DNA of 64,000 nt. Origin: Deltaproteobacteria bacterium (GTDB taxonomy: Bacteria; Desulfobacterota; Binatia; HRBIN30; JACQVA1). The stretch is from NCBI GenBank assembly GCA_016178705.1, contig JACOST010000008.1, forward strand, positions 102,069-166,068. Direction: 5' to 3'. Numbering within the stretch: position 1 is the first letter of the stretch; each line of letters starts with the position of its first letter. The notes below the pieces were generated by a model that was not told the DNA's origin, searched no databases, and worked only from the letters and a program-made list of their open reading frames with translations. Both the position numbers and the translations under genes were made by a program. Shown one piece after another: positions 2,598 through 36,245 of the stretch.

Positions 2598-3512
2598 ATG
2601 GCCGATTTGATCTTGCACCAGTACGACACCTCGCCGTTCTCCGAGAAGATCCGCAAGATCTTCGCGCACAAGCATCTGGCGTGGCGCGCGGTCGAGCAGC
2701 CGACCATCATGCCGAAGCCGCAACTGATCCCGCTCACCGGCGGCTACCGCAAAATTCCGGTGCTACAGATCGGCGCCGACGTGTATTGCGATACGCAGCT
2801 CATCGCGCGCATTATCGAAGGGCTACATCCCGAGCCGACACTCTATCCCGACAACAGCGAGGGCGCGTGCCACGCCATCGGGATGTGGGCGGACCGGTTG
2901 TTCTTCTTCTCCACCATCCCAGTGCTGTTCGCGCTCCTCGGCGACAACCTGCCGCAGGCATTCATCGACGATCGCACCAAGATGATGCCCGGCCGCAACT
3001 TCGCCGACATTCCGAAGCTGGCACCGTACGCGAAGGAGCAGTGTCGTGGCTTCGCGGCCTGGCTCAACGCACAGCTCAGTGACGGCCGCGCCTTCCTTCT
3101 CGGTCAGCGGTTCAGCTTGGCCGACGCGGCGTGCTACCACCCGGTCTGGTTCCTGCGGAACGTGCCGCCGGCGGCGACGGTGTTCGACGAGTTCCCCAAG
3201 CTGATCGCCTGGTCGGAACGCATCAAAGCCATGGGTCACGGCCAACGCAGCGACATGGACCCCGCCGACGCGTTGCGCATCGCGCGTGAGAGCAACAGCG
3301 CGACGAAGGAAGTCATCGATCCGAACGATCCCAGCGGTTTGAAGCCGGGCGACAAGGTTGCTGTCACTCCAGACGACTACGGCTTCGATCCGGTCGCGGG
3401 CACGGTAGTGATGTCGTCAGTGCACGAGGTCGCCATCCGGCGGCAGGCAGCAGAAGTCGGTGAGGTAGTGGTGCACTTCCCGCGCGTGGGATTTCGCGTC
3501 GACCGAGCGTGA
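2598..3512 (+). CDS. Glutathione S-transferase family protein
   Basis: 304 aa with an N-terminal thioredoxin-like GST_N region (HQYDTSPFSEKIRKIFAHKHL...IPVLQIGADVY) and a C-terminal helical domain. Intact ORF. Confidence 0.7.
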   Translation: MADLILHQYDTSPFSEKIRKIFAHKHLAWRAVEQPTIMPKPQLIPLTGGYRKIPVLQIGADVYCDTQLIARIIEGLHPEPTLYPDNSEGACHAIGMWADRLFFFSTIPVLFALLGDNLPQAFIDDRTKMMPGRNFADIPKLAPYAKEQCRGFAAWLNAQLSDGRAFLLGQRFSLADAACYHPVWFLRNVPPAATVFDEFPKLIAWSERIKAMGHGQRSDMDPADALRIARESNSATKEVIDPNDPSGLKPGDKVAVTPDDYGFDPVAGTVVMSSVHEVAIRRQAAEVGEVVVHFPRVGFRVDRA

Positions 3513-3548
3513 TTGACGCTCATACGCGGAGGAATTGCCCAGCCAGAA

Positions 3549-3920
3549 TCAACGGGGGCGCCGCGCTGGTCGCCTGACGCGGATTTTGCGGCCTGTGGCG
3601 ACCACGAAGCAGCGGCGCCATCGCTCCACTTCTTCGCTCGCGAAGATGGCACCTACCCGCTCCGCGAGAGCACGCCGCCCAGGCTGGTTCAATCGAACCA
3701 GCAGCAAGCCGTGATGCGTACCCGGTGCGAACTGGCGCAGGTCGGAGAAGTCGAGGTCCTGCGTGATCAAGAATCGGCGCGTGCGCTGTGCGGCTGCCCA
3801 GATATCCGAATCGGGTCGGCTCGCGAGACCTTCGTCAGGCACACTGTCCACATCATGCCCAAGCGCCACGAGGCGCTTCACCAACGCGACGGGCATGTTC
3901 TCGTCGAGTTTGATTCTCAC
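3549..3920 (-). CDS. DUF5615-family (PIN-like) protein; putative toxin of a DUF433/DUF5615 pair
   Basis: MRIKLDENMPVALVKRLVALGHDVDSV...FLITQDLDFSDL matches the DUF5615 consensus. It overlaps the upstream DUF433 gene by 4 nt. Confidence 0.65.
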   Translation of the reverse strand: MRIKLDENMPVALVKRLVALGHDVDSVPDEGLASRPDSDIWAAAQRTRRFLITQDLDFSDLRQFAPGTHHGLLLVRLNQPGRRALAERVGAIFASEEVERWRRCFVVATGRKIRVRRPARRPR

Positions 3921-4186
3921 AGTTTGGCTGGAATCGCGGAGGCCGGCAGGTCTTCCTCGGCAGAGGCGGCAGCGAAGGCAATGACCGCACGGACGTCATC
4001 TGCGGTGAGCGTGGGGAAGTCGGCAAGGATTTCCTCGGTGCTCGCACCTTCCGCCAGACTCGCCAACACGGTGCGAAGCGTCACGCGCGTACCCTTGACG
4101 ACGGGCTCACCGCCACACACCTTGCGGTTCCGAACAATTCGACTGCGGTAGTCCATGATGACCTCGCTACCCCTCAATACCAGCAT
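3917..4186 (-). CDS. DUF433 domain protein; putative antitoxin partner
   Basis: GTRVTLRTVLASLAEGASTEEILADFPTLTADDVRAVIAFAA is the DUF433 signature. It is translationally coupled to the DUF5615 gene. Confidence 0.65.
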   Translation of the reverse strand: MLVLRGSEVIMDYRSRIVRNRKVCGGEPVVKGTRVTLRTVLASLAEGASTEEILADFPTLTADDVRAVIAFAAASAEEDLPASAIPAKL

Positions 4187-4234
4187 GTTCTGCGCGACAC
4201 CATCCGAAGGACCCTGCGGGATGAGCCTCCGACG

Positions 4235-4476
4235 CGTTACGCATCGCCCACGAGAGCACGAGCACGACGAAAGAAGCCGCCGACCCGAACGACCCGAGCG
4301 GCCTCAAACCCGGCGAGAAGGTCAGCGTCACCCCAGACGACTACGGCTTCGATCCGGTCGCGGGCACGGTAGTGATGTCGTCGGTGCATGAGATCGCCAT
4401 CCGCCGCAACGCAGCGGAAGTCGGTGACGTGGTAGTGCACTTCCCGCGCGTGGGATTTCGAATCGACCGAGTGTGA
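4235..4476 (+). pseudogene. 3'-terminal fragment of a GST gene paralogous to 2598-3512 (encodes only the last ~80 codons, no start codon)
   Basis: 4241-4479 aligns with 3273-3515 at about 88% nucleotide identity, with differences mostly at third codon positions. The in-frame translation DALRIAHESTSTTKEAADPNDPSGLKPGEKVSVTPDDYGFDPVAGTVVMSSVHEIAIRRNAAEVGDVVVHFPRVGFRIDRV* parallels the GST C-terminus. The open frame begins right after a stop at 4232-4234. Confidence 0.6.
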
Positions 4477-4534
4477 TTGACGGTCTAACGCTTCGAAGAC
4501 TGCGCCGCGAAGCATTCAACTCGCGAGGCACCGG

Positions 4535-7489
4535 CTACGAACCGAGGATTGCCTTCTTCGCATCAGCGAGTTCCTCGTCGCGGCCATGGTAGCCGCAAGC
4601 GTTGATGAGTTTCTCCGCTGCGGCGAGATCGGCTTGCGGCGATTCCCACGGATAAGCCGCCCCTTCATTTCGCATCCCGGAATCCGCATTCCGCATTCCA
4701 AAGAGCCGGGCGCGATGCAGGTGAATATCCGCCATGAACAGCCTCATGGGGCCGCGCTCGGCGATGTCCCAGGCTTCGTCCAGGTCGCTCTGGGCACTCT
4801 CGGGGCCGATGCGCGCGCCGGTGAGAAGCCGCAGCCAGGCGCGAGTGAGGAGGCCGAGGGGAATCATGTGCTGCGTGCCGGCGCGTCGGAGGCCGGCCAC
4901 GGCCTGATCAATTTCCGATTTCGGGTTTTGGATTTCGGACTTTTCCAAGATCACCGCGTAGAGCGCAGCGCGGCCCAGGGTGAGGTGGTGAAGCGCGAAG
5001 TCGAGAATAGGAGCGCCGCGCATTCCTTCCTCCCACTTGAGCGTCTGCGCCGCGCGCTGCTCGACCGCGCGGCATGCCTCAACCAATTTCGGATTTCGGA
5101 CTTCGGATTTCGAATTCAACAACAGTTCCCACGCGGCACGCTCCGCCTCCGTCAAGAGCAGGTCGCAATACTGGAAGCCCTGCACCGAATACAGCAGCGG
5201 GTAGCCGGGCTGACTCTCGGCCTGCATCTGCTCGGCCTCGCGGAAGCGCGCCTCCGCCTCGGCCCGGCGGCCCGCCTGGTGCAGGGCGTCGGCATGGGTC
5301 GTGCGCACAATATTCCACATGCCAGCATCGCCGCTGCGGTCGGCGTAGGTCACGGACTGCTCGGCGTCCCCCACCGCCCCGGCCACCTCGCCCAGCGTCA
5401 GCTCCAGCTCGCTCAGGTTGCTGGCGCCCGCGGCAGCGTGCTCCCAGTCCTTCTTCTTGGCCGCCCATTCTGTTGCAGCCCGCATCGGATCGAGGGCCTC
5501 GGTCAGCCGGCCCAAGGCGCGCAGGGTGAAGGCGGCTGCATTCAACAGCCAGGCTTGGTCGGCTTCCGTGAGCGCGGGCGAGACGCGGCTCCACGGGGTC
5601 TCGAAGAAGCAGGCGATCGCTCCCAGGTTGGAACCAAGCGCCCCGAGTTTTCTCACGCTATAGATTTCGTTTCCACGCTGGATGCGCGAGAAGAAGACCT
5701 TGTCACACGCCTCCTGCTGCCACCCCGCCTGGCAGCCGTGGGCCACGCTTTGGTAGAGCGGTTGGAGGTCTTCGAGGGTGGGCTGGTCGCCTTCCTTCGT
5801 GCTCGCGCAGAGGTGTTCGTAGAGCCGCCGGTGCGAGCCGCGCCAGGCCTCGGGCTGCCGCGTGCGGAGTTGCCGGGCGAAGTATTCGCGCAGCAGCGGG
5901 TGGGCATCCAGCGAGACCAGCGTGCCGGCCGCGTCCCGGTTCACCGTGAGTAGCTTCGCGGTCTCCAGCCGGGTGAGGGCCACGTTCCGCTGCGCCTCGC
6001 TGATCCGGACAAGCGCCCCGGTCAGGCCCGGGACGGCGGGAGCCTTCAGCAGCGCGGCCAGGCAGTCGGCGGTCGCGGGCCGGTCGAACAACCCGAGCAG
6101 TCGCAGTAGGGCGAGAGCGCGCTTGCCTTTCTCCCCCTCGCTTTCGTACGACAGCACATACGCATCCATCACACGGAAGGCGTGGCCGCCCTGTTCCTCG
6201 GCGTCGGCTTCCTCAAACTTCACGAGGTCGCGCTTGCGGATGTCCCCGGCATGCGCGTCGTGGAGGTAAGCGCCAAGCAGGTTCAAGGTGAGCGCGTGGC
6301 CTTGCACGTCTTCCACCAGCGCCGCGAATTCCTTTTGATTCCCCGTCACGCCGAGTCGCTTGAGCAGCGCCACGCCGGCGTCCTTGGACAGGCGCGTGAG
6401 CTTCACTTCCGGCGCGGTGGTCTGCCAGTAGGCGCGCAAGTCGGGGATGGAATACCGAGTGGTGACGACGCACAGGCCGTGGCTGGTGGCGGCCAGCCCT
6501 TTGAGCAGGGCGGCGAGACCCTGGTCTTTGAGTTCGCCCGGCGTGGGTGAGGTGGGCGCGTATTGCAGCGGCTCCAGGCCGTCGAGGATGAGCAGCGCCC
6601 GCCGCTCACCGACGAGCTGCGCCAGCCGCCGGCCTTTGTCGAACGCGCCCTGCGCACTGCCCGCCATCGCCGCGTCGCCGAAGAAGGTGAGCGCTTCCTT
6701 GAGAAACACGTCGGACGATGCCGCGGCCTGCTCGCGCGTGCCCTGGCTGTAGAAAGACCACGCGAAGACTGCGTCGCACCCCGACCAGTCCTGACCCGCC
6801 AACTCCGCCGCCCACTTCGCCACCAGCGAAGTCTTCCCCTCGCCGCCGAGGGCGACGAAGGTGAGCACGTGCGGGCGCGGTGCGGCGGCGTTGCGGACCT
6901 TCGCCCAGGCGTCGGAGAGCAGCTTTGTTTCCGCCTCGCGGCCGATGAGTTCCGCCGGGGCGTATTTGATGATGCGGGAGATGTCGAACCTGCTGGCAGG
7001 AGTCGGGGTCGAGTCGGGTGGTTTCCGTGGCGGGGTGATGCCTTGGTTGAGGGAGAGGCGCTTGAGAATCTCTTCCGCGATTTCCTTCGCGTTGCTGGTG
7101 TCGATGTCGATGTATCCATCTCCACTGAGAATGCCGAGTTCGGTAACATCTCCAGGGTTTCCGAAGCTGAGGAACATGATTCTCCGTGCCTCCACCGTGG
7201 CGAGCATCTGGCGGATGAATCTCCATTCAAGCCGGCACCAACGCTTGGCGGCATACTCCGGACAGAGAAAGAGCACGATCAGCTCCGACTGCGTGCGGTA
7301 GAGATTGGGCAGATAGACATCCAAGTCCGGCGCAGCGAATTCCGCCTGGTGGTACTTGTCGTAGAGTACCCGATCCGTGGTGAATTGGGCGGCCAGATGG
7401 CCTGCCACCTGTTTCACAAATTCCCGATGCTCGCCCGGAAACGAGAGGGCGACGTCGAAGCGGCGTGGAGTGTCCGCATCTGTACTCAT
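4535..7489 (-). CDS. TIR–NB-ARC (STAND NTPase)–TPR protein; bacterial NLR-like candidate antiphage defense protein
   Basis: 984 aa. The N-terminus (FDVALSFPGEHREFV...CPEYAAKRWCRLEW) is TIR-like. It is followed by Walker A LGGEGKTSL, Walker B LLILDGLE and a TTR motif (GLCVVTTRYS) typical of the NB-ARC/AP-ATPase clade. The C-terminal ~500 aa are TPR-like helical repeats with in-frame 7-aa repeats (KSEIQNP, GMRNADS). Confidence 0.7.
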   Translation of the reverse strand: MSTDADTPRRFDVALSFPGEHREFVKQVAGHLAAQFTTDRVLYDKYHQAEFAAPDLDVYLPNLYRTQSELIVLFLCPEYAAKRWCRLEWRFIRQMLATVEARRIMFLSFGNPGDVTELGILSGDGYIDIDTSNAKEIAEEILKRLSLNQGITPPRKPPDSTPTPASRFDISRIIKYAPAELIGREAETKLLSDAWAKVRNAAAPRPHVLTFVALGGEGKTSLVAKWAAELAGQDWSGCDAVFAWSFYSQGTREQAAASSDVFLKEALTFFGDAAMAGSAQGAFDKGRRLAQLVGERRALLILDGLEPLQYAPTSPTPGELKDQGLAALLKGLAATSHGLCVVTTRYSIPDLRAYWQTTAPEVKLTRLSKDAGVALLKRLGVTGNQKEFAALVEDVQGHALTLNLLGAYLHDAHAGDIRKRDLVKFEEADAEEQGGHAFRVMDAYVLSYESEGEKGKRALALLRLLGLFDRPATADCLAALLKAPAVPGLTGALVRISEAQRNVALTRLETAKLLTVNRDAAGTLVSLDAHPLLREYFARQLRTRQPEAWRGSHRRLYEHLCASTKEGDQPTLEDLQPLYQSVAHGCQAGWQQEACDKVFFSRIQRGNEIYSVRKLGALGSNLGAIACFFETPWSRVSPALTEADQAWLLNAAAFTLRALGRLTEALDPMRAATEWAAKKKDWEHAAAGASNLSELELTLGEVAGAVGDAEQSVTYADRSGDAGMWNIVRTTHADALHQAGRRAEAEARFREAEQMQAESQPGYPLLYSVQGFQYCDLLLTEAERAAWELLLNSKSEVRNPKLVEACRAVEQRAAQTLKWEEGMRGAPILDFALHHLTLGRAALYAVILEKSEIQNPKSEIDQAVAGLRRAGTQHMIPLGLLTRAWLRLLTGARIGPESAQSDLDEAWDIAERGPMRLFMADIHLHRARLFGMRNADSGMRNEGAAYPWESPQADLAAAEKLINACGYHGRDEELADAKKAILGS

Positions 7490-7644
7490 GGCTGGGCAGA
7501 GGGATACCAGTCATGGGCAGGCGTAGACAAGGATTTCGCTTTGACGTGGACGATTCAGTAGGACAGGCACCCCTTCTCACCCAGGAACGCGCAGGAGCGT
7601 CACCGGCCTTGGAACCGCACCAGCCTCCAAGCTATTGTAGTTGC

Positions 7645-7917
7645 ATGCTGCCGCGAGGAGTTGCCAGCGTTGTTACTGCTGCCACGCACGACCGCGTGGT
7701 CATCGGCGACGCCGAGCTGGATCACGCCAGGCGCCATTTCCCCTTGCCGCGCGACCTCCTGCTCAAACTCGTAGAGCGCGTCCTCATGCACCCCACGGCG
7801 GTACTCGTTGATGACGCCAAGAGCCCACGGCAATATCGTCTGTTCTATCGATTGGAGGACGGCCGCTACCTGCTGGCCGTTGTGAAGGTCACACGCGCCT
7901 TTTTCGCCAGCATGTAA
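7645..7917 (+). CDS. DUF4258-like small protein (putative toxin of a DUF4258/DUF2283 pair)
   Basis: ...HARRHFPLPRDLLLKLVERVLMHPTAVLVDDAKSPRQYRLFYRLEDGRYLLAVVKV resembles the DUF4258 pattern (HA..R...RgI...VV.v). ATG at 7645; a longer ORF from 7465 is possible. Confidence 0.4.
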   Translation: MLPRGVASVVTAATHDRVVIGDAELDHARRHFPLPRDLLLKLVERVLMHPTAVLVDDAKSPRQYRLFYRLEDGRYLLAVVKVTRAFFASM

Positions 7918-7969
7918 CCCAACGGGACGGCGCGTTCGGCGGCGCGCACCGCAAGTTCAGGAGGCTCCT

Positions 7970-8251
7970 ATGATGAAGAAGCCCAGCATCTCGTTCCGCC
8001 ACTTCGAGGGCTCCGGCCCGTTGTCGGTCTACTGGTACCCGGGGCCATACGGCGACGCCGTAGATGCCAGAAGCGGCGCCGGCGTCGGGTGGTTTGCGCC
8101 CAACGGGGAATTGCTCGGCGTCGAGTTCGACGACGTCACCGTTGAGCACGATCACCAAACACTTCCGTTCGCGAATGGAGAGAGCGTTGAAATCGAGGTC
8201 AGCCGCGGCAAGGTATCCGTCCGGCGCAAGCGGATTCGAAACGTTGCGTAG
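7970..8251 (+). CDS. DUF2283-like small protein (putative antitoxin partner)
   Basis: ...VGWFAPNGELLGVEFDDVTVEH fits the DUF2283 core (dG.lvGIEil). Adjacent and co-oriented with the DUF4258-like gene. Confidence 0.4.
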   Translation: MMKKPSISFRHFEGSGPLSVYWYPGPYGDAVDARSGAGVGWFAPNGELLGVEFDDVTVEHDHQTLPFANGESVEIEVSRGKVSVRRKRIRNVA

Positions 8252-8304
8252 CGCACGGAGACCAGGTGCAGCGTTTACTTGCGAGACCGCCAGAGCTGAG
8301 CGCC

Positions 8305-9402
8305 TCAGTCAACGTCGCCGCGCGGCTGCTGCTGCGTCAGGCAGTGGAGTGTTCCCAAACCCCACACGAGGTCGACGGCGTGGATGCCGATGATCTCGCG
8401 GGTTGAGAACAGTTTCGCGAGCGTGTCGAGGGCGACACGATCGTGCGGGTCGTTGAAGGTTGGGACCAACACCGACTGGTTGGCGATGTAGAAGTTGGCG
8501 TAGCTCGCCGGCAAACGCAGCGCCTCGTATCGAATCGGCTCGGGCATCGGCAGCTCGACGATTGCGAGCGGGCGACCGTCTTGATCGCGCATCGCTTTGA
8601 GCCGTCGCAGGTTGTCGGCCAGTGGCGCGTGATTCTCATCGTGTCGGTTCGGTTCGACGACGGTGACGACGGTGCGCGGATCGACGAAACGCGCGAGATC
8701 GTCGACGTGACCGTGCGTGTCGTCACCAGCGATGCCGCGGCCGAGCCACAAGATATTCGTCACCCCGAGATGATCGGCCAGAGCTTCCTCGATCTGTTGG
8801 CGCGACAAGCGCGGATTGCGTGCTTGGATTGGTGAGAGCAAACACTCTTCCGTCGTCAGCAGCGAGCCGCGGCCGTTGACGTCGATGCTGCCGCCTTCGA
8901 GCACGACGCGCTCGCCCTGCACGGTCGGCACGAACCGCGGCAGCCGCAGTCGGCGAGCCAGCTTGGCGTTGACGGCGTCGTCGAGCTGATGGTTGCGATA
9001 TTTCGCCCAGCCATTGAACCGCCAGTCGGTGATCGCGATCCGACGCCCGCGTCGGACGAAGATGGGACCGAAGTCGCGGGTCCAACCGCGATTGGTCGGG
9101 ATGATGAAGAACCGGATCTGCCTGAGCGGTACGTACGCCTTGGCCAGTAACCGCCGCACGCGCACGCGCGCAACAACGTCCTTAACGATGATCCGCAGCG
9201 GCTCGCTGCGCGCGAGCGCGCGCGCGATCTCGACGTAGACGAAGTGAATCGCGGCGATCTTCCCCGGCCAGTCCGCGCCATGATGCGGCCAGGCAATCCA
9301 GGTCGCCGCGTGCGGCTCGAACTCGGCCGGCATGCGGTAGCCGAGTTGCGCGGGGGTTTCGGGTTCGTCGTCGCTGCGCACGGTCGGCTCCACTATCGTC
9401 AC
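8305..9402 (-). CDS. aguA: Agmatine deiminase
   Basis: 365 aa with the C-terminal catalytic motif GTLHCLTQQQP (HCxTQQxP) and an N-terminal WIAWPH motif typical of the agmatine deiminase/PAD family. Confidence 0.8.
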   Translation of the reverse strand: MTIVEPTVRSDDEPETPAQLGYRMPAEFEPHAATWIAWPHHGADWPGKIAAIHFVYVEIARALARSEPLRIIVKDVVARVRVRRLLAKAYVPLRQIRFFIIPTNRGWTRDFGPIFVRRGRRIAITDWRFNGWAKYRNHQLDDAVNAKLARRLRLPRFVPTVQGERVVLEGGSIDVNGRGSLLTTEECLLSPIQARNPRLSRQQIEEALADHLGVTNILWLGRGIAGDDTHGHVDDLARFVDPRTVVTVVEPNRHDENHAPLADNLRRLKAMRDQDGRPLAIVELPMPEPIRYEALRLPASYANFYIANQSVLVPTFNDPHDRVALDTLAKLFSTREIIGIHAVDLVWGLGTLHCLTQQQPRGDVD

Positions 9403-10205: not shown

Positions 10206-11225
10206 TTACGCGACCAAGTCGGTCGCGCTCTTCTTCTCGATGCCAAGCGCGGCGATCAGCCGCTCGCGGACGTGCTGCGCAGCGGGCTGCCAGTCGCCGT
10301 CGGGAACCGGCATGCGTCCGCCGGCGATTTGATCGTGGCCGCCCGCGTGGTGGCTGCCGAGGACCTTTTGCAGCAGCTCGCCGGCGTTGACGTCGCGATT
10401 GACCGTGCGCAGCGACACGTACAGCGCGCCCTGATAGTAGCCCATCGCCGCGGTCCATTCGGCCTGATCGAGCCGCAAAAGAAAATCGGCAACTTCAGCC
10501 ACCATGTCGGGATAGCGCACCTCGCCGATCGAGGTGATCACGGCCTTGTCGTCGTAGATCACCGCCGACTCGATAGCGTCGCGGAAGCCGCGGAAGTACT
10601 CGCGCGGCACGCGCGCGTTCTCGATCTTCGCCAGACGCCGCTTGTTGGTGTGCGGATAGAGAAACTGGCTGGCGTGAATGTCCGCCTGCGTCGCTTCGCG
10701 GCCAAGGTCTTGGGTTTCCGCCGCGATCCCGTAAAAGAGCGCGGTGGCGATTTTCGGTTCGATTTCCAACCGCGACTCTTGCAGGTACTCGGTGAGAATC
10801 GTGGAGGTGGCGCCGTACTCATCACGCAAGTCGAAGAATGGAACCTGATGCGTATCGCAGTAGGCCGGGTGATGATCGATCACCACCGCCGGCGGGAAGC
10901 CTTCGGGAAGCGAGTTGTTGGTACGCCCCGGTTGCGTGTCGACCAACGCGACGACGGTGTCGCGCGCGAACGGAATGTCGCCGACCGGAACGAGATTGAT
11001 GTTGAGGTAGGTTAGCATCGCGCGGTTCTCTGCCCGCCCGACGATCCCGCCGAGGGCGATGACGGAATCCTTCCCGAGCCGATGCTTGACGATGTACTGT
11101 AGCGTCGCGGCGCTGGCGAGCGCGTCGGGGTCCGGGTTGTCGTGCGGCAGGATGACAAACGGGCCGGCCTGCTCCACCACGTCGAGGAGAGCCCCGAGCG
11201 CCCCTTTACCCGAGTTATTGGGCAT
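10206..11225 (-). CDS. DHH/DHHA1 phosphoesterase (NrnA-like oligoribonuclease/pAp phosphatase)
   Basis: Has the DHH-family motifs ILPHDNPDPDALAS and VVIDHH, with a C-terminal DHHA1 region ending ...GGHDQIAGGRMP. Confidence 0.75.
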   Translation of the reverse strand: MPNNSGKGALGALLDVVEQAGPFVILPHDNPDPDALASAATLQYIVKHRLGKDSVIALGGIVGRAENRAMLTYLNINLVPVGDIPFARDTVVALVDTQPGRTNNSLPEGFPPAVVIDHHPAYCDTHQVPFFDLRDEYGATSTILTEYLQESRLEIEPKIATALFYGIAAETQDLGREATQADIHASQFLYPHTNKRRLAKIENARVPREYFRGFRDAIESAVIYDDKAVITSIGEVRYPDMVAEVADFLLRLDQAEWTAAMGYYQGALYVSLRTVNRDVNAGELLQKVLGSHHAGGHDQIAGGRMPVPDGDWQPAAQHVRERLIAALGIEKKSATDLVA

Positions 11226-31119: not shown

Positions 31120-31205
31120 GACACTACCCCTGCCTACTGTCCCTTGACCGTGTCGCAGCGGGAAGCTATCACCGTCGCGCGCTAGCCGACAGTGTTCACA
31201 CCCAT

Positions 31206-31289
31206 GCGAAAGTGGCGGAACTGGCAGACGCGCAGGATTCAGGATCCTGTGGGGTAAAACCCGTGGGGGTTCAAGTCCCCCCTTTCGCA
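31206..31289 (+). tRNA. tRNA-Leu (anticodon CAG), long variable arm
   Basis: Acceptor stem GCGAAAG/CTTTCGC, D-arm TGGCGGAACTGGCAGACGCG, anticodon stem-loop CAGGA-TTCAGGA-TCCTG (CAG at positions 34-36), long variable arm, T-arm GGGGGTTCAAGTCCCCC. No CCA encoded. Confidence 0.8.
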
Positions 31290-31488
31290 CTTCGTCCGTT
31301 GAGCGCTAACGCATTTGCCAGATCTACCTGACGCTGCGTTTGTTGCTGTTTCTCGCTACCACCCAGCAGGCCCACGACCCGCATCGCAGCGCTTCGCGAA
31401 GTAAGATGCGATAGCCGGAAGCTAACACTCCGGAACGAATAGAGGACCCCTTCCCTCCCCGAGCGCCTGTTCGGCGATCTAGGGAGCG

Positions 31489-31512
31489 TCGTCGCTGGCA
31501 TCCCACGACATG
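31489..31512. repeat. 24-bp exact direct repeat, copy 1 (copy 2 at 33946-33969)
   Basis: tcgtcgctggcatcccacgacatg occurs twice. On the minus strand it encodes MSWDASDD, which is the C-terminal end of the PPOX-like gene at copy 2. Confidence 0.8.
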
Positions 31513-31665
31513 CGCCGGCGCGCCAACTATCAGCGACACGATCACGGCCGCGCCGCGTCTGGCCATCATCTACCACGATCTCTCGTGACGGCATCCTCGA
31601 TACGGTCGGACAGGGAGCGATGCCGTTGCCGACACACACCCCGTTTGTGTTACCGCGCGATCACC

Positions 31666-32808
31666 CTATTGGCACGCGAACGTGCCGGTGACGACGACGT
31701 CACCGGTTTGCTCGTCCAGGTTGCCGAATGCGCTCACCTGCGACGAGCCGCTCAGTCCGTCCATCGGATTGCCCGCCATGATCTTACCGCAGTCGAGCGC
31801 CGACCCGGTGACCTTGGTCCGGCAGTGACTCGCGCCGCAGACCTGCCCGTCGGCGATGCTGGTGCCCTGGATATCGCTGGTGTTCAGGATTTGCGCCGTC
31901 GCCGTTCCGGTGGTGGTCGCCAGCAGGTTGGGCTTCCCTATGCCGACATCGTCGGCGGTACAGGGAATGCCGTCCGGCCCCTCTGGGGCGCCCGCCGTGT
32001 TGGGCGGCACGGTCTTGCACGTACCGCCGTCCGGCAACAGGCTGACCGACGTATTCGAGTTGATCACCGCCGAACCAGTCGGGCCGGAGCCGCTGAAGGT
32101 AGTCACCGGCATGGCGTTGCACGCCGGCTTGCTGCTGCATAGGCTAGGGTTGTGCGGATGCATATCCGAACCGTCTTCCGGCGTCCCGCTTGTGCAATTC
32201 GGATCGGGGTCGGGCGTGTCGCAGTGCGTGTCGTGGTCGATGCTGTAGAGGTAGTTCACATTCGCCAAGCCGGCGGAGCCGCAGCCGGCTTTGCCTTCGG
32301 CGGAGTTCATGCCGCCGAAGGCGGCCACCGGCACGCTGCGCACGCAGGCGCAGCCCACGCCGGACACCTTGACGGGATCGAACGTCATATCGGGCGCCGC
32401 GATGACGATCGGCACCTCCATCGCGGCGAAGGCAGGCGTCGATGACCCGGCGTAGAAAGTGGAATCCGTCCGTGGATGCCCAGTGGTGAGCGTTTGCTGG
32501 CCGGTGAGGCGGAGCTGGATCGCGAAGATGGCCGTCTGCACCTTGGAGACGGTATCGGGGCCGAACACGCACAAGCGGCGGTTTTCCACCGTGCAATTGG
32601 CCGCACAGCCGTCGCCGCCGATGGTATTGCCATCGTCGCATTCCTCGGAACCTTCCATCACGCCGTTGCCGCAGACAGCGCCTGTACTGGAGGGCGTGTT
32701 CGCCGGGGTAGCCGTCCCGCCTTCGTTATCACCGCCGCAGGCGGCGAGGAAGATCGCCATGCCGCCGGCCGCGAGGATCGCGCCGAACCACTGGTTCCGA
32801 GTCTTCAT
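31666..32808 (-). CDS. Secreted lipoprotein with myxobacterial-type cysteine-rich repeat
   Basis: Lipobox LAACGG. VCGNGVMEGSEECDDGNTIGGDGCAANCTVE matches the Myxococcus cysteine-rich repeat (CGDG...EECDDGN...DGC...C..E). The remainder is Gly/Thr/Cys-rich. Confidence 0.6.
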   Translation of the reverse strand: MKTRNQWFGAILAAGGMAIFLAACGGDNEGGTATPANTPSSTGAVCGNGVMEGSEECDDGNTIGGDGCAANCTVENRRLCVFGPDTVSKVQTAIFAIQLRLTGQQTLTTGHPRTDSTFYAGSSTPAFAAMEVPIVIAAPDMTFDPVKVSGVGCACVRSVPVAAFGGMNSAEGKAGCGSAGLANVNYLYSIDHDTHCDTPDPDPNCTSGTPEDGSDMHPHNPSLCSSKPACNAMPVTTFSGSGPTGSAVINSNTSVSLLPDGGTCKTVPPNTAGAPEGPDGIPCTADDVGIGKPNLLATTTGTATAQILNTSDIQGTSIADGQVCGASHCRTKVTGSALDCGKIMAGNPMDGLSGSSQVSAFGNLDEQTGDVVVTGTFACQ

Positions 32809-33183
32809 GTCATCCTCCTCAACTAGTGTACCCCGTGTCGATCTCGTGATGGCCAGGATCGAGCAGCGTGTTCAGCGACTGCGGAGTCGGCGACAGGGCA
32901 GCGGCGGGATCGATCGGAGCCGCCCGAGCCGGCAGCGCGGCACCGTGCAGTCACAGATCCCCGTCGAAGTATTTTTGGTACGTCTTACCGCGAATCCGCT
33001 CGCGGTTGATCGCGAACTGCCGCTGTGTGGCGACCGGATAGTACGTGACCCGGTTCTTCATGCTCCCTTCCGTGGGAACGGGTGTGCGCCAAGGTAGTGC
33101 GCATGCCACTCCGCGGTGAGGCGGGAGAACGTCGGCGCGGTGAGCTCGGCGGGGCGATGTCCAGCGGGCTGCCATCGTGGCGC

Positions 33184-33789
33184 TCAGAAGCGGAGCATGT
33201 CGACCGGGCCTGTGCCCTCGGGAAGCGGCGGTCGCGCCGTGAGTGTCTCGATCGGCTCGCCGGCCTCGTAGCGCGCGACGAGTTCCTCCGGATCAAAGAT
33301 CACGCCGATCGGATTGGCGGAGAACTCGCCGCTGCGCATCCAGGCGTCAATCGCCCGGGCGGAGGGCATGCTGTCGACCTGCAGCTCGACGCGGTTGCCG
33401 TCGGGATCCTTGTAGTACAGCGAGGTGGTCGGCCCGCGGTTGATGCACCAGTACGGCTCGATACCGGCTGCCTTGAGGCACCGGAAGGTGTGCAACAGAT
33501 CGCCGAGATCCGCGTAGCTGAACGCGATGTGATCGGTGCCAGCAGCCATCATTGGCTGCTCTTCGAGCCCAGGAATACTCGCGATGGCGATCCGATGGTG
33601 CTCGTCGTCGTAAGTGAGAAAGGCGAGTACGCCGTCGGAGTGCACCACCTCGGCGCCGAGGACAGTGCAATACCAACGTACCAACTCGTCGAAGCGCGCG
33701 GTACGACGCACGACGTGTGCAAGCTGGCGCGGCTTCACCACGCCGCGATTCACGGACAGCCGACGTTGGCGGTCTTCCCGAGTGCTCAT
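33184..33789 (-). CDS. VOC-family protein (glyoxalase/extradiol dioxygenase fold)
   Basis: MSTREDRQRRLSVNRGVVKPRQLAHVVRRTARFDELVRWYCTVLGAEVV... shows the typical VOC beta-alpha-beta-beta-beta module pattern. ATG at 33789; the track ORF from 33948 starts inside the 24-bp repeat. Confidence 0.55.
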   Translation of the reverse strand: MSTREDRQRRLSVNRGVVKPRQLAHVVRRTARFDELVRWYCTVLGAEVVHSDGVLAFLTYDDEHHRIAIASIPGLEEQPMMAAGTDHIAFSYADLGDLLHTFRCLKAAGIEPYWCINRGPTTSLYYKDPDGNRVELQVDSMPSARAIDAWMRSGEFSANPIGVIFDPEELVARYEAGEPIETLTARPPLPEGTGPVDMLRF

Positions 33790-33916
33790 GTGTTCTCCTG
33801 TCTCCTGCAGGTCCTTGGCCGTTCGTTGAAAACGTCCCTCTTGGATCGGGGCCGGACCAGAACGAGGAAATCTTCCTGCGTGGAAATCGCGCTCGTGCCG
33901 CGACCCCGTGCTCCGT

Positions 33917-34486
33917 TCAGGGGGAGGGACGTGCATCGTCGCTGGCATCCCACGACATGAGCGAGCTCACCCAGTGCGTGATCGGCTCCTCTTGGTCGTT
34001 GCGGTGGAGATGGCGCGGAGGCTGCGCGAACGTCTCATAGGGCTGGCAGCGGAGGACGACCCGGCCCTCCTGCTCCGCCATCGCTTGGACCATGGGGCGC
34101 GCGTGATCGGGAAGGGGCTGGCCCGACATACGACCGGCCACGGCCATCATGACGTCGACCACCAGCTCCGGATCGGTCTCGACGCGAGCGTCGCAATAGA
34201 CTTGAAGATAGGCGAAGGGCCAGCGCTCGTCGAGGATGCACAGGCTCACCTTGCCGTTGCGAGCGACCGCCTTCGCCTTGGCACGACCGCGCATGGTGGA
34301 AACGAGCAGCTCATCGCCGTCAGTCGGCACGTAATACACGATAGACATAGCTGGACCGTCCAGGCGACGGGCGTTGCCGAAGACGCAGGTGCGGTGGGTC
34401 CGGACGAAGGTCCGCCGCTCGGACGGTAGCATGTCGCGATCGGTTGGGGTCGTGAAGGGTTCAACGGGCCACGGTAGCAAGTGCAT
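33917..34486 (-). CDS. PPOX-class (pyridoxamine 5'-phosphate oxidase-like) probable F420-dependent oxidoreductase
   Basis: MHLLPWPVEPF...RTCVFGNARRLDGPAMSIVYYVPTDGDELLVSTMRGRAKAKAVARNGKVSLCILD fits the PPOX-class F420-dependent enzyme pattern. Divergently transcribed from the TetR gene. Confidence 0.55.
   Translation of the reverse strand: MHLLPWPVEPFTTPTDRDMLPSERRTFVRTHRTCVFGNARRLDGPAMSIVYYVPTDGDELLVSTMRGRAKAKAVARNGKVSLCILDERWPFAYLQVYCDARVETDPELVVDVMMAVAGRMSGQPLPDHARPMVQAMAEQEGRVVLRCQPYETFAQPPRHLHRNDQEEPITHWVSSLMSWDASDDARPSP
33946..33969. repeat. 24-bp exact direct repeat, copy 2
   Basis: Identical to 31489-31512. It overlaps the last 8 codons of the PPOX-like gene on the minus strand. Confidence 0.8.
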
Positions 34487-34509
34487 TTGGGGCTCTCCTT
34501 CGGAGCAGA

Positions 34510-35259
34510 TTGTATTATCGATCGATAATACTATATCGTAGCTCCGTGAGTTACACAAGCAAGGGCCGCCCCCGCGTTCGTCGCGATCGCAAGAACCTGC
34601 GCTCACAGTTGTTGGACGCAGCGCTCGTCGAATTCGGCGCGAAAGGATTCACCGGCGCATCGACGCGAGCCATCGCCCGGCGCGCCAACGCCCACCAGCC
34701 GCAGATCAACTACCACTTCGCCTCGAAGCGCGCGCTGTGGAACGCGGCGCTCGAGCACCTCTTCGCTCTGCTTGGCGACGCCATGGGCGGCGTCGTAGTG
34801 CCCCCGCGCACCGGCCGGAGGCACGACGTCCAGGCGCTTGCGGATGCGTTCGCCGAGGGTATCCGATGCTTCGTGCGGTTCGCGGCCGCGCACCCTGAGC
34901 TGAACCGGATCGTGGTGCACGAGGCGACGGCGGCGAGTGAGCGACTCCGTTGGATGACGAAGCGACACGTGCGGCCGTTCTACGAAACCGTCCGCGCGCT
35001 CTGGCGTCCGCTGCGCGCCGCCGGGATCGCGGCGCCCATCGACGAGAAGCTGGTGCACTACGTGCTCGTCGGTGCCGCCTCGCTACCCTACGTCAATGCT
35101 CCCGAGGCGCGGCTCCTCACCGGCGCCGAGCCAACCGATCCGGCCTGGGTTGAAGCGCACGCGGATGCCCTGGTGGCGACGTTGCTGCCCGGGCGGACCG
35201 AGAGGCCGCGAGCAGCGCGGCGGGAGGTTGCTTTCGCGAGACGCCGTCGGACCAAGTGA
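34510..35259 (+). CDS. TetR/AcrR-family transcriptional regulator
   Basis: N-terminal HTH ...RSQLLDAALVEFGAKGFTGASTRAIARRANAHQPQINYHFASKRALW. The start may be GTG 34546, downstream of the palindrome. Confidence 0.75.
   Translation: MYYRSIILYRSSVSYTSKGRPRVRRDRKNLRSQLLDAALVEFGAKGFTGASTRAIARRANAHQPQINYHFASKRALWNAALEHLFALLGDAMGGVVVPPRTGRRHDVQALADAFAEGIRCFVRFAAAHPELNRIVVHEATAASERLRWMTKRHVRPFYETVRALWRPLRAAGIAAPIDEKLVHYVLVGAASLPYVNAPEARLLTGAEPTDPAWVEAHADALVATLLPGRTERPRAARREVAFARRRRTK
34513..34530. promoter_or_regulatory. 18-bp perfect palindrome TATTATCGATCGATAATA in the divergent PPOX/TetR promoter region (probable TetR operator)
   Basis: Read directly from the sequence. It lies between minus-strand ATG 34486 and the TetR ORF, in an AT-rich context. 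Confidence 0.45.
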
Positions 35260-35317
35260 CGGAGAAGAACGGACGCTGACGGCAGCGTCTGCATTCTTTC
35301 ATGCTTAGCCCGCTGAC

Positions 35318-35362
35318 CCTGTGGGGCAAGACCCGTGGGGGGTTCAAGTCCCCCCTTTCGCA
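35318..35362. repeat. Direct repeat of the 3' end of tRNA-Leu(CAG) (45 nt, 3 differences): att-site-like island boundary
   Basis: cctgtggggcaagacccgtggggggttcaagtcccccctttcgca versus tRNA 31245-31289 cctgtggggtaaaacccgtgggggttcaagtcccccctttcgca. No matching 5' half upstream, so it is not a second tRNA. Confidence 0.7.
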
Positions 35363-35407
35363 TCTAAATTCCTGCTCGACAAATCTCGCCGAGTTGCGCG
35401 CCCGCCG

Positions 35408-35455
35408 CGGCATGGCCGCGTAGAGTCACTCAAGCCGCCTTCGCCGTGACGGACA
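35408..35455. repeat. 48-bp direct repeat, copy 1 (includes the last 8 codons + stop of the higA-like gene and 24 nt downstream)
   Basis: cggcatggccgcgtagagtcactcaagccgccttcgccgtgacggaca matches 36197-36245 with 2 mismatches. Confidence 0.75.
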
Positions 35456-35750
35456 ATCTAACGCGCGTCTTCTTCTGCAGGGTACGGACGATGCCGAAGA
35501 AATTTTCGGTGCTCGGATTTCCGTGCGGTGCCAGCATCCGATGGAGGCTCTTGCTCGGTTTGTTGACTGCCGCCGCGAGGGCCTCGAAGCCGACCGTCGC
35601 GTTAACCAAATCGCGCAAGATAGCCTTGCCAGTAGATGTGTCGCCGGCGAGATAGGCGTTGATCGCTTCGCTAAACAGCGCTTGACGGAATCGCGCATCG
35701 CGCTGGGCTCGTGCCAGGATGGTTTCCCTGAAATCTCGTGTGAGCGCCAT
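35430..35750 (-). CDS. higA: HigA-family addiction-module antidote protein (HTH)
   Basis: MALTRDFRETILARAQRDARFRQALFSEAINAYLAGD...FFGIVRTL matches the addiction-module antidote (HigA) family pattern. Immediately downstream of the killer gene. Confidence 0.65.
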   Translation of the reverse strand: MALTRDFRETILARAQRDARFRQALFSEAINAYLAGDTSTGKAILRDLVNATVGFEALAAAVNKPSKSLHRMLAPHGNPSTENFFGIVRTLQKKTRVRLSVTAKAA

Positions 35751-35768: not shown

Positions 35769-36122
35769 TCACGCCTTCCGGCGCCGGTAGTCGGCCCATC
35801 GCGCTCTTGCCGAGGCGATGGCTTCCTGCTGTCGTTGCTTGCTGCTCCCACCCAGCAAGATCACCAGGGCATCTCCATCTCTGCCGAAATAGACGCGGTA
35901 GCCAGGACCAAACTCGATCTTCCGTTCGAACACACCGGAGCCAACACCTTTCACGTTCGAAAAATTGCCAGCGGCCAGCTGATGGACAGCCGCAGCCACT
36001 TTGGCCGCCGCCGGCGCATTCAACGAGTCGAACCACCTCGCGTAGGCGGAACGGCCGTGGCCATCGAGGTATTCAACGAGCCGGATCGGCGCCACGCATG
36101 AAAGTAACATAAATGTTACCAT
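35769..36122 (-). CDS. higB: Addiction-module killer protein (RelE/HigB-like toxin)
   Basis: MVTFMLLSCVAPIRLVEYLDG...GNFSNVKGVGSGVFERKIEFGPGYRVYFGRDGDALVILLGGSSKQRQQEAIASA fits the putative addiction module killer family. ATG at 36122 sits within the inverted repeat GTAACAT-AA-ATGTTAC. Confidence 0.65.
   Translation of the reverse strand: MVTFMLLSCVAPIRLVEYLDGHGRSAYARWFDSLNAPAAAKVAAAVHQLAAGNFSNVKGVGSGVFERKIEFGPGYRVYFGRDGDALVILLGGSSKQRQQEAIASARARWADYRRRKA
36104..36119. promoter_or_regulatory. Inverted repeat GTAACAT-aa-ATGTTAC overlapping the higB-like start codon (candidate autoregulatory operator)
   Basis: Read directly from the sequence. TA operons are typically autorepressed at palindromes near the start. 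Confidence 0.3.
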
Positions 36123-36177: not shown

Positions 36178-36196
36178 AACCGGGCGGGATTTCGGC

Positions 36197-36245
36197 GGCA
36201 TGGCCGCGTCGAGTCGCTCAAGCCGCCTTCGCCGTGACGGACATG
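36197..36245. repeat. 48-bp direct repeat, copy 2 (orphan higA 3'-end remnant upstream of higB)
   Basis: The minus strand reads ...ATGTCCGTCACGGCGAAGGCGGCTTGA, i.e. SVTAKAA*, the same C-terminal codons as the higA-like gene. Confidence 0.75.

Follow-up and report, generated by a model that had tools for sequence, protein, structure and literature searches.

In a 64,000-nt stretch of a Candidatus Binatia metagenome-assembled genome (MAG) contig (JACOST010000008.1, positions 102,069–166,068; here called the window, to which coordinates refer unless another locus is named), the 3′ end of a GST-family gene was found twice, as a diverged direct repeat that brackets a predicted toxin-antitoxin (TA) pair. 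Comparison with orthologues indicates that the native gene consists of 2598–3261 and 4226–4479, and that 3262–4225 is an insert of 964 nt made up of an alternative GST end and the TA pair. The repeat is probably the scar of a "3′-end displacement", i.e., one-sided homologous recombination combined with an illegitimate join, with no dedicated recombinase involved.

Anatomy of the repeat and the native gene end

The repeat copies are located at 3262–3527 (copy 1) and 4226–4491 (copy 2), both on the plus strand. They are 266 nt long and were aligned without gaps or net indels at a constant offset of 964 nt, with 223 of the 266 positions identical (83.8%; blastn E-value 5e-77). Outside both ends, identity falls to the random level (17–20%), so the edges are sharp. 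Within the repeat are the last 83 codons of the 304-aa GST gene (codons ~222–304), the stop codon (3510–3512 and 4477–4479 in copies 1 and 2, respectively), and 15 nt beyond it. An earlier note on this DNA had described an 88% identical direct repeat at 3273–3515 and 4241–4479. The repeat itself was recovered, but identity over that span was 201/239 (84.1%), and the span was ~11–15 nt short on the left, with its two segments 4 nt out of register. Identity varies along the two copies: ~20 of 22 positions in 3262–3283, ~72% in 3284–3368, 100% in 3369–3418, and ~86% in 3419–3527. The 50-nt stretch 3369–3418 (4333–4382 in copy 2) is the longest identical run and contains the conserved PDDYGFDP codons as well as ~24 nt that are otherwise variable. 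At these ~24 nt, both copies share states absent from every orthologue, which points to gene conversion between them after the insertion.

Copy 2 is a start-less pseudogene fragment whose upstream gene part is absent. As the earlier note had stated, it stays in the GST frame, lacks a start codon at its 5′ end, and follows an in-frame stop, here a TGA at 4222–4224. It contains no internal stop. To the left of 4226 no remnant of the gene was detected, the alignment score to the GST sequence upstream of 3262 being no better than that of shuffles. Scanning 3300–4700 for promoters and terminators gave no promoters and one chance-level terminator. The earlier note had called the changes between the copies mostly synonymous or conservative; 26 of the 40 coding differences are at third codon positions, and the ratio of nonsynonymous to synonymous substitution rates (dN/dS) is 0.20. 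Copy 2 compared with its orthologues gave a dN/dS of ~0.10, as in a working gene. Both copies have thus been under purifying selection. Because of the dN/dS of 0.20, the copies are taken to have diverged as functional genes in separate lineages, in agreement with the earlier view that a simple recent target-site duplication does not account for them. The displacement itself appears recent relative to the divergence of the two copies.

The two genes between the copies are on the opposite strand, as first described, and are the only open reading frames (ORFs) with Pfam matches inside the bracket. A PIN-like predicted toxin of the DUF5615/PIN_10 family is encoded at 3549–3920 (minus strand, 123 aa; Pfam E = 3e-22) and a DUF433 predicted antitoxin at 3917–4186 (minus strand, 89-aa ORF; Pfam E = 3e-21; the GenBank gene call is 79 aa, from 4156). 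The DUF433 stop and the DUF5615 start overlap by 4 nt, and the pairing is conserved in four other loci (L050, L051, L135, and L136; compared loci carry L numbers). Two small, co-oriented, overlapping genes with these family domains are predicted to form a type II TA pair. The same structure was present in a second, independent assembly (L049, GCA_016195705.1; 99.99% identity over 12 kb), and an assembly artefact is therefore unlikely.

Whole-region alignment with MAFFT placed all orthologue 3′ ends on copy 2 or misplaced the L050/L051 junction; comparisons were based instead on in-register extraction and manual reading of the sequences. Divergence from the L001/L053/L052 clade was 10.3–10.6% in the GST 5′ part, 12–13.5% in copy 2, and 18–24% in copy 1. 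In Fisher tests against the 5′ part, copy 2 did not differ (p = 0.19–0.47), whereas copy 1 did (p = 6e-7 to 2e-3). The difference was largest in 3284–3370 or its equivalents, where copy 2 was 94–97% and copy 1 70–74% identical to the L001 clade; copy 1 was no more than 79% identical in this part to any sequence found. The synonymous divergence (dS) from L053 was 0.59 for queG, 0.48 for the GST 5′ part, 0.50 ± 0.12 for copy 2, and 1.10 for copy 1, and 0.22 ± 0.03 for aguA. The maximum-chi-square breakpoint in the intact GST gene was at 3269 against L001 (27.8) and at 3263 against L053 (20.8). At this breakpoint, which coincides with the left edge of the repeat (3262), divergence of the intact gene rises from 10% to 22–24%.

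These values reverse the earlier suggestion that the remnant was the acquired piece: copy 2 would be the native end, and copy 1 would have come with the TA pair. The intact gene (2598–3512, plus strand; Pfam GST_N_3/GST_C_2 on residues 6–211) would accordingly be a chimera of a native 5′ part (2598–3261) and an acquired 3′ part (3262–3512). Its junction is near the boundary between the GST_C domain and a C-terminal extension in which no Pfam domain was found. Horizontal acquisition of the TA module, which the earlier note had proposed, holds. Copy 1 is foreign to the backbone and directly adjoins the TA module; its 3′ flank and the TA pair are collinear with L050, where GST and TA are also contiguous. 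Collinearity extends over 2631–4207 at 85% identity, and the 3′ flank of copy 1 corresponds to the spacer between GST and TA in L050. At the right junction of the insert (4187–4225), 4187–4207 is homologous to L050/L051, and 4208–4225 comprises 18 nt of untraced origin that include the in-frame TGA, after which the remnant begins abruptly at 4226. The GC content is 0.61–0.65 throughout and the insert shows no contrast, which fits a donor within Binatia. Two GST homologues (P0005 and P0006; 79–81% amino-acid identity) were considered as donors of copy 1 and rejected, as their sites are empty and their 3′ ends are 69–72% identical.

The GST/aguA junction in related genomes

Gene order was compared in relatives with a GST of at least 78% amino-acid identity. 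The order is queG-GST-aguA, with GST and aguA convergent. The earlier note had asked what follows GST in related genomes; in the empty-site relatives it is followed directly by aguA. Empty sites, with the GST and aguA stop codons 4–100 nt apart, were found at L039, L053, L054, L055, L137–139, L140–141, and L142. About nine lineages were empty and three were occupied by different cargo. With these sites empty in relatives, 3513–8304 of the window is wholly extra. Two complete tandem GST genes, the arrangement that the earlier note had named as a sign of ancestral paralogy, were found in none of ~140 loci by tblastn with the N- and C-terminal halves.

The cargo in the window consists of the TA pair, the GST remnant, a TIR-NACHT STAND gene, and a PBECR2-like pair. 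In L050 and L051, the same TA pair (85–87% nucleotide identity) is located beside GST, followed by a 119-aa relic of the C-terminal end of the STAND gene, and in L052 a HigB/HigA pair is followed by a pentapeptide-repeat gene. The 119-aa ORF (L050 769–1128; L051 9304–9663) is 77% identical at the nucleotide level to the C-terminal end of the STAND gene (window 4532–5007) and is a truncated relic of that 984-aa gene. A stretch of 303 nt (window 4208–4510), including the GST remnant, is absent from L050/L051; in the window, a 5-nt CGAAG repeat lies on either side of it. The L051 contig (DATJAU010000258.1), deposited as "Candidatus Kryptonia bacterium", has the same gene order (PmbA/TldD, DHH, DUF1232, aguA, TA) as the Binatia window, at 77–87% nucleotide identity, and is probably mis-binned or mislabelled.

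The TIR-NACHT STAND gene (4535–7489, minus strand, 984 aa; Pfam TIR_2, weak NACHT) is outside the repeat bracket, in the same variable island as the TA pair, and is missing from the empty-site relatives. The NACHT/AAA_16 Pfam scores of its protein are weak, and it may be an unclassified defence-type NTPase. The rest of the island cargo is a PBECR2-like nuclease ORF with a 93-aa ORF (7970–8251), together spanning 7465–8251 on the plus strand (Pfam PBECR2 E = 5e-6; GenBank call for the PBECR2-like ORF 7645–7917). Searches with PADLOC and NCBIfam gave no match for the TA pair, the STAND gene, or the PBECR2 pair. The conserved right flank is aguA, of the agmatine deiminase family (8305–9402, minus strand; Pfam PAD_porph E = 1e-116). 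Its C-terminus reads …QQQPRGDVD (stop) in the window versus …QQQPKG (stop) in all empty-site relatives (8305–8322), which places the right junction of the island within the last aguA codons. A remnant of the aguA 3′ end was sought within the island, and none was found. Since aguA is much closer to L053 than are queG and the GST 5′ part, a separate recombination breakpoint must lie somewhere across the island.

In Binatota, the GST/aguA junction is a hotspot at which TA and defence-type genes are inserted. The two genes converge almost without a spacer, and an insertion would be lost unless it rebuilt the gene ends; this constraint may explain why brackets build up at GST/aguA.

Several candidates and irregularities were noted during the survey. 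It was considered whether the close DUF5615 relatives are always beside GST; they are not, as L135 is by a phosphatidylserine decarboxylase gene and L136 by a TPR-protein gene, and no repeats were found at these two loci. More distant DUF5615 relatives are in unrelated contexts. L001 and L041, which belong to the same MAG and overlap in the GST 3′ end, were considered as hiding a second bracketed insertion. A contig of a sister MAG (L053) spans queG-GST-aguA without a break, and strain variation is the simpler reading of the overlap. Among the GST orthologues, L048 (6001–6239) and L133 (6001–6560) look damaged by internal deletions, and L045 (6001–6895) has a frameshift or an overlap between its two halves.

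Switches of GST allele and relics of the GST end recur at this gene. The GST of L052, a close relative (JGI 3300036760), is 96–97% identical to L001/L053 up to the PDDYGFDP core and 21–24% divergent past it, the intact gene changing to a foreign allele exactly at the core. Its divergence from L001 rises from 3.5% to 24% within the breakpoint interval 3351–3397 (window coordinates; chi-square 75), where the GST relic beyond HigBA starts. That relic is a 34-nt copy of the core directly after HigA (L052 11702–11735; 91% identical to 10775–10808). In L095, a distant Binatia-like contig with a GST 58% identical to that of the window, a gene for an FKBP prolyl isomerase with a signal peptide (7019–7447) is bracketed by the GST 3′ end (6787–6918) and a relic of 129–132 nt (7512–7643; 88% identical to the GST 3′ end, with an in-frame TAG). 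Divergence between L001 and L053, which are both empty-site loci, rises from 1.4% to 11% at the same core. These switches imply that the last 115–250 nt of GST are often exchanged, with crossovers concentrated in the longest conserved stretch. The relics of L052 and L095 start at the conserved core, and the repeat of the window starts 110 nt upstream of it. The left edges thus differ, and so do the bracket lengths: 266 nt in the window, 34 nt in L052, and ~130 nt in L095. The cargo is 0.6–0.7 kb in all three cases, with no genes of phages or integrative and conjugative elements (ICEs).

Further brackets were observed around these loci. Directly after its GST relic, L095 has a second one, with ~70-nt repeats (86% identical, 7700–7769 and 9299–9366) around a HATPase_c-domain gene (7779–8684) and a 135-aa ORF; the adjacent brackets suggest successive insertions, each duplicating flank sequence. 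Upstream of GST in L099, a 145-nt direct repeat (97% identical, 5294–5438 and 5839–5983) brackets a 70-aa ORF resembling biotinyl/lipoyl domains (5508–5720) and includes the 5′ end of the transporter gene beside it, giving a 50-aa start fragment (5826–5978). L140 has a patchwork in place of queG upstream of GST (4660–4746/6908–6994, 4782–4935, 5720–6900), composed of an 87-nt repeat of the GST upstream region (98%), a 154-nt aguA fragment (88%), fragments of a neighbouring 1158-aa AAA_16/guanylate-cyclase gene, and a pair consisting of a DUF2283 gene and a 91-aa ORF.

Elsewhere in the window, an intact tRNA-Leu(CAG) gene (31206–31290) is followed ~4.07 kb downstream by a 48-nt copy of its 3′ part (35315–35362, 92% identical) that spans the variable arm, T arm, and acceptor. 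Such an arrangement is the textbook mark of island insertion at a tRNA gene. The ORFs of at least 110 aa listed in 31200–34600 are a secreted or lipoprotein-like ORF of 380 aa, two enzyme-like ORFs, and a TetR regulator, and no integrase-like ORF was among them. A second TA-like pair, on the minus strand, is enclosed by a 49-nt direct repeat (35407–35455 and 36195–36243; 96% identical, 788 nt apart). The pair consists of a predicted toxin of the RelE/ParE family (35769–36107; TIGR02683, E = 2e-24) and a putative antidote ORF (35430–35750; 106 aa), whose last ~8 codons are inside the left repeat. A quick self-comparison of the collected sequences gave, as a raw count with no null expectation, approximately eight integrase-less repeat-bracketed insertions, of which three are at GST, in 1.15 Mb of Binatia sequence. 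The count hints that diverged-repeat brackets are a common mode of gene gain in these genomes.

Probable route of insertion and its alternatives

The displacement would have proceeded as follows. In the ancestral backbone, GST would have been followed by other genes within a few tens of bases. The donor would have been a related Binatia lineage in which DUF5615/DUF433 was already just downstream of its own GST allele. The 3′ portion of the donor GST would have paired with the resident gene and been joined to it by homology at about codon 222 (3262–3283), and the far end of the donor segment, just upstream of the DUF433 start, would have been rejoined illegitimately to the resident gene at the same point. 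The product would be the resident 5′ GST, the foreign GST 3′ end, the TA pair, and the resident GST 3′ end, in this order. The resident end would thereby have become a promoterless fragment with no start codon, GST staying intact as a chimera, and later gene conversion between the copies may have homogenised at least the 50 nt of 3369–3418. A break in the resident gene may have been repaired by copying the foreign allele past the gene end, with end-joining afterwards; this is the most natural version because the switch and resumption points coincide within ~20 nt. In enzymatic terms, homology-facilitated illegitimate recombination (HFIR) or break repair templated on foreign DNA may have been at work, and addiction to the TA pair may have helped the insert persist. 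The earlier note had offered recombination between GST paralogs or orthologs as one way in for the TA module; in the form of recombination between diverged orthologous alleles, with one illegitimate junction, this fits better than an element that targets the GST 3′ end.

Several points weigh against the displacement. The homologous switch and the illegitimate rejoining are within ~20 nt of each other, which classical HFIR does not predict, although the break-repair version would. L050/L051 have the TA pair next to the STAND relic with no GST remnant, and they represent either a donor-type haplotype or a deletion of the 303 nt at 4208–4510. Neither a donor (at least 95% identity to copy 1 and the TA pair) nor a pre-insertion haplotype (GST, 55 nt, STAND) was found among the sequences compared. 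The segment-wise comparisons rest on 90–250 nt. The GST C-terminal region is a general recombination hot region, with ratios of C-terminal to 5′ divergence of up to 3.5–5.6 within the L001 clade, and its histories are therefore mosaic. Identity to the L001 clade is 96.6% in the left part of copy 2, against an average of 89.7% in the GST 5′ part, and aguA is closer to L053 than is the left flank (dS 0.22 versus 0.48–0.59). These last two values leave room for copy 2 having arrived with the STAND island.

That alternative, which we regard as unlikely, starts from a resident that already had GST with the copy-1 end and the TA pair, as in L050/L051. An L001-like fragment, from GST codon ~222 through TIR-NACHT to aguA, would have been integrated by aguA homology and joined illegitimately at its left end just upstream of DUF433, so that copy 2 would be a hitch-hiking piece of the donor. 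Besides the two values above, it is favoured by the TA pair abutting the STAND C-terminal relic in L050/L051, where the remnant is absent. It gives, however, no reason for the breakpoint in the intact gene (3263–3269) to match the left end of the remnant, a coincidence that recurs independently in L052, and the dS of copy 2 equals that of the GST 5′ part, not that of aguA. An integrase-free circle of 964 bp (a GST 3′ copy and the TA pair) that entered the resident GST end by a single RecA-dependent, Campbell-type crossover is distinctly unlikely. Made elsewhere by recombination between such repeats, the cassette could spread between genomes. The structure is formally a Campbell product with no junction left over to explain, the 50-nt identical core would suit the crossover, and the bracket recurs with other cargo in L052 and L095, as do integrase-less repeat-bracketed insertions elsewhere in these genomes. 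Yet copy 1 should then be native and copy 2 foreign to the left of the crossover, and 3284–3368 shows the opposite, so that the crossover would need to have taken place in the first ~20 nt. The TA pair without repeats in L050/L051 and the variation of bracket lengths and left edges from case to case also speak against a circle. More generally, we think it improbable that the bracket is the footprint of a general, recombinase-independent movement of small cassettes in Binatia, in which cargo flanked by a copy of a neighbouring gene end loops out by recombination between the repeats and re-enters a related genome at the homologous gene end. If so, the incoming cassette would rebuild the gene and displace its old end. 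TA modules would often be carried along, with conserved gene ends, for example the PDDYGFDP core of GST, as de facto attachment sites.

A decayed site-specific integrative element of the type of e14 or phage 21 in icd, or of tRNA islands, with an attP that carried the GST 3′ end and the integrase gene since lost or acting in trans, is very improbable. The anatomy matches that of icd/icdC around e14 (PMC13626634), the relics of L052 and L095 start at the same core, and the tRNA-Leu 3′ fragment is in the same window, 4 kb from the intact gene. On the other hand, those ORFs between queG and aguA that were scanned with Pfam yielded no recombinase domain, the left boundary in the window is 110 nt upstream of the core, and the small cargo has no phage or ICE genes in any of the three cases. 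The core is also an ordinary allelic crossover point (L001 versus L053), as expected of the longest conserved stretch. The earlier idea of an element that targets the GST 3′ end and regenerates it, as at tRNA genes, was not upheld: no recombinase is encoded in the bracket, independent cases have different left boundaries, and L050/L051 hold the same TA pair beside GST with no repeat. Least credible of all is an in-situ duplication of the GST end (paralogy or tandem duplication) with later divergence, or a metagenome assembly chimera. The direct orientation, the spacing of 964 nt, and the origin of the sequence from a MAG would allow it. Nevertheless, the dN/dS of 0.20 and the absence of indels and stops in 251 nt at 16% divergence mean that the divergence did not accumulate in a dead fragment. 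For each copy, some orthologue is closer than would be possible after a duplication, and none of the ~140 loci had two full GST genes. A chimera is contradicted by the junction 4225/4226, which shares no sequence able to mis-join the assembly graph, and by the agreement of two assemblies. In-situ duplication and chimera are essentially refuted already.

Comparison with known systems

The phenomenon is of known kinds, i.e., gene-end displacement or regeneration at an insertion hotspot, and not a new type of mobile element. Less usual are the ordinary enzyme gene, the antiparallel TA cargo, the lack of a recombinase, and the threefold occurrence at the same gene. If the displacement is read correctly, it offers a clean, datable case of a TA module entering a chromosome without mobile-element machinery: the module rides on a diverged allele of the end of the neighbouring gene, and the old end is left behind. 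The intact GST would be a natural chimera with its junction near a domain boundary. For annotation, start-less gene-end fragments may serve to mark recent acquisitions and to reveal the foreign side of a junction. Binatota is a little-studied phylum, and the convergent GST/aguA pair is identified in it as an insertion hotspot.

The "minimal mobile elements" of Neisseria are whole-gene cassettes that differ between strains and are located between conserved flanking genes. The GST/aguA site is similar in that its flanks are conserved and adjacent when empty, and strains differ in cargo (DUF433/DUF5615, HigBA, TIR-NACHT, and the PBECR2 pair). It differs in its duplicated gene end, which the double homologous crossover of classical cassette exchange does not leave behind.

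Islands that target tRNA and tmRNA genes rebuild the 3′ end of the target gene. The e14 element and phage 21 in icd leave an icdC fragment, as reported in PMC13626634 with reference to Hill et al. 1989. As at icd, the insert lies between diverged direct repeats that consist of the 3′ end of the gene. The working gene is completed by sequence from the insert, a pseudogene fragment is what remains of the native end, and recombination between the repeats would yield a chimeric but intact gene. Unlike there, the insert has no integrase, excisionase, or phage genes, the cargo is 0.7 kb, and the position of the boundary varies between independent cases.

HFIR has been described in naturally transformable bacteria (de Vries & Wackernagel, Prudhomme et al., and Meier & Wackernagel, as cited in PMC5361080 and PMC3240628). 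The insertion in the window shares with it one homologous anchor (the GST 3′ part, ~80% identical), one illegitimate junction (4225/4226), and the gain of foreign genes beside the anchor. Experimental HFIR usually deletes recipient DNA, whereas here the recipient sequence resumes at the start of the anchor, resulting in a duplication.

C-terminal displacement is described at Rhs, CdiA, and type VI secretion system (T6SS) effector loci (Jackson et al. 2009, as cited in PMC5361080), and HFIR was proposed for the displacement of T6SS effector 3′ ends and Rhs tips by Kirchberger et al. 2017 (PMC5361080). As at these loci, an incoming alternative 3′ end with linked small genes recombines at the conserved upstream part, the old 3′ end stays downstream in the same orientation as a start-less orphan, and no recombinase is present. 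Arrays can arise by repeated events, and L095 has two adjacent repeat-bracketed cassettes. These systems involve polymorphic toxins, whereas the gene in the window encodes an ordinary GST-family enzyme (GST_N/GST_C). Its new end brings no new toxin domain, being an orthologous allele of the same function; an antiparallel TA pair is linked to it in place of a cognate immunity gene; and nothing suggests selection keeping the displaced piece. The case suggests that "3′-end displacement", so far described mainly at polymorphic toxin loci, also acts on ordinary enzyme genes.

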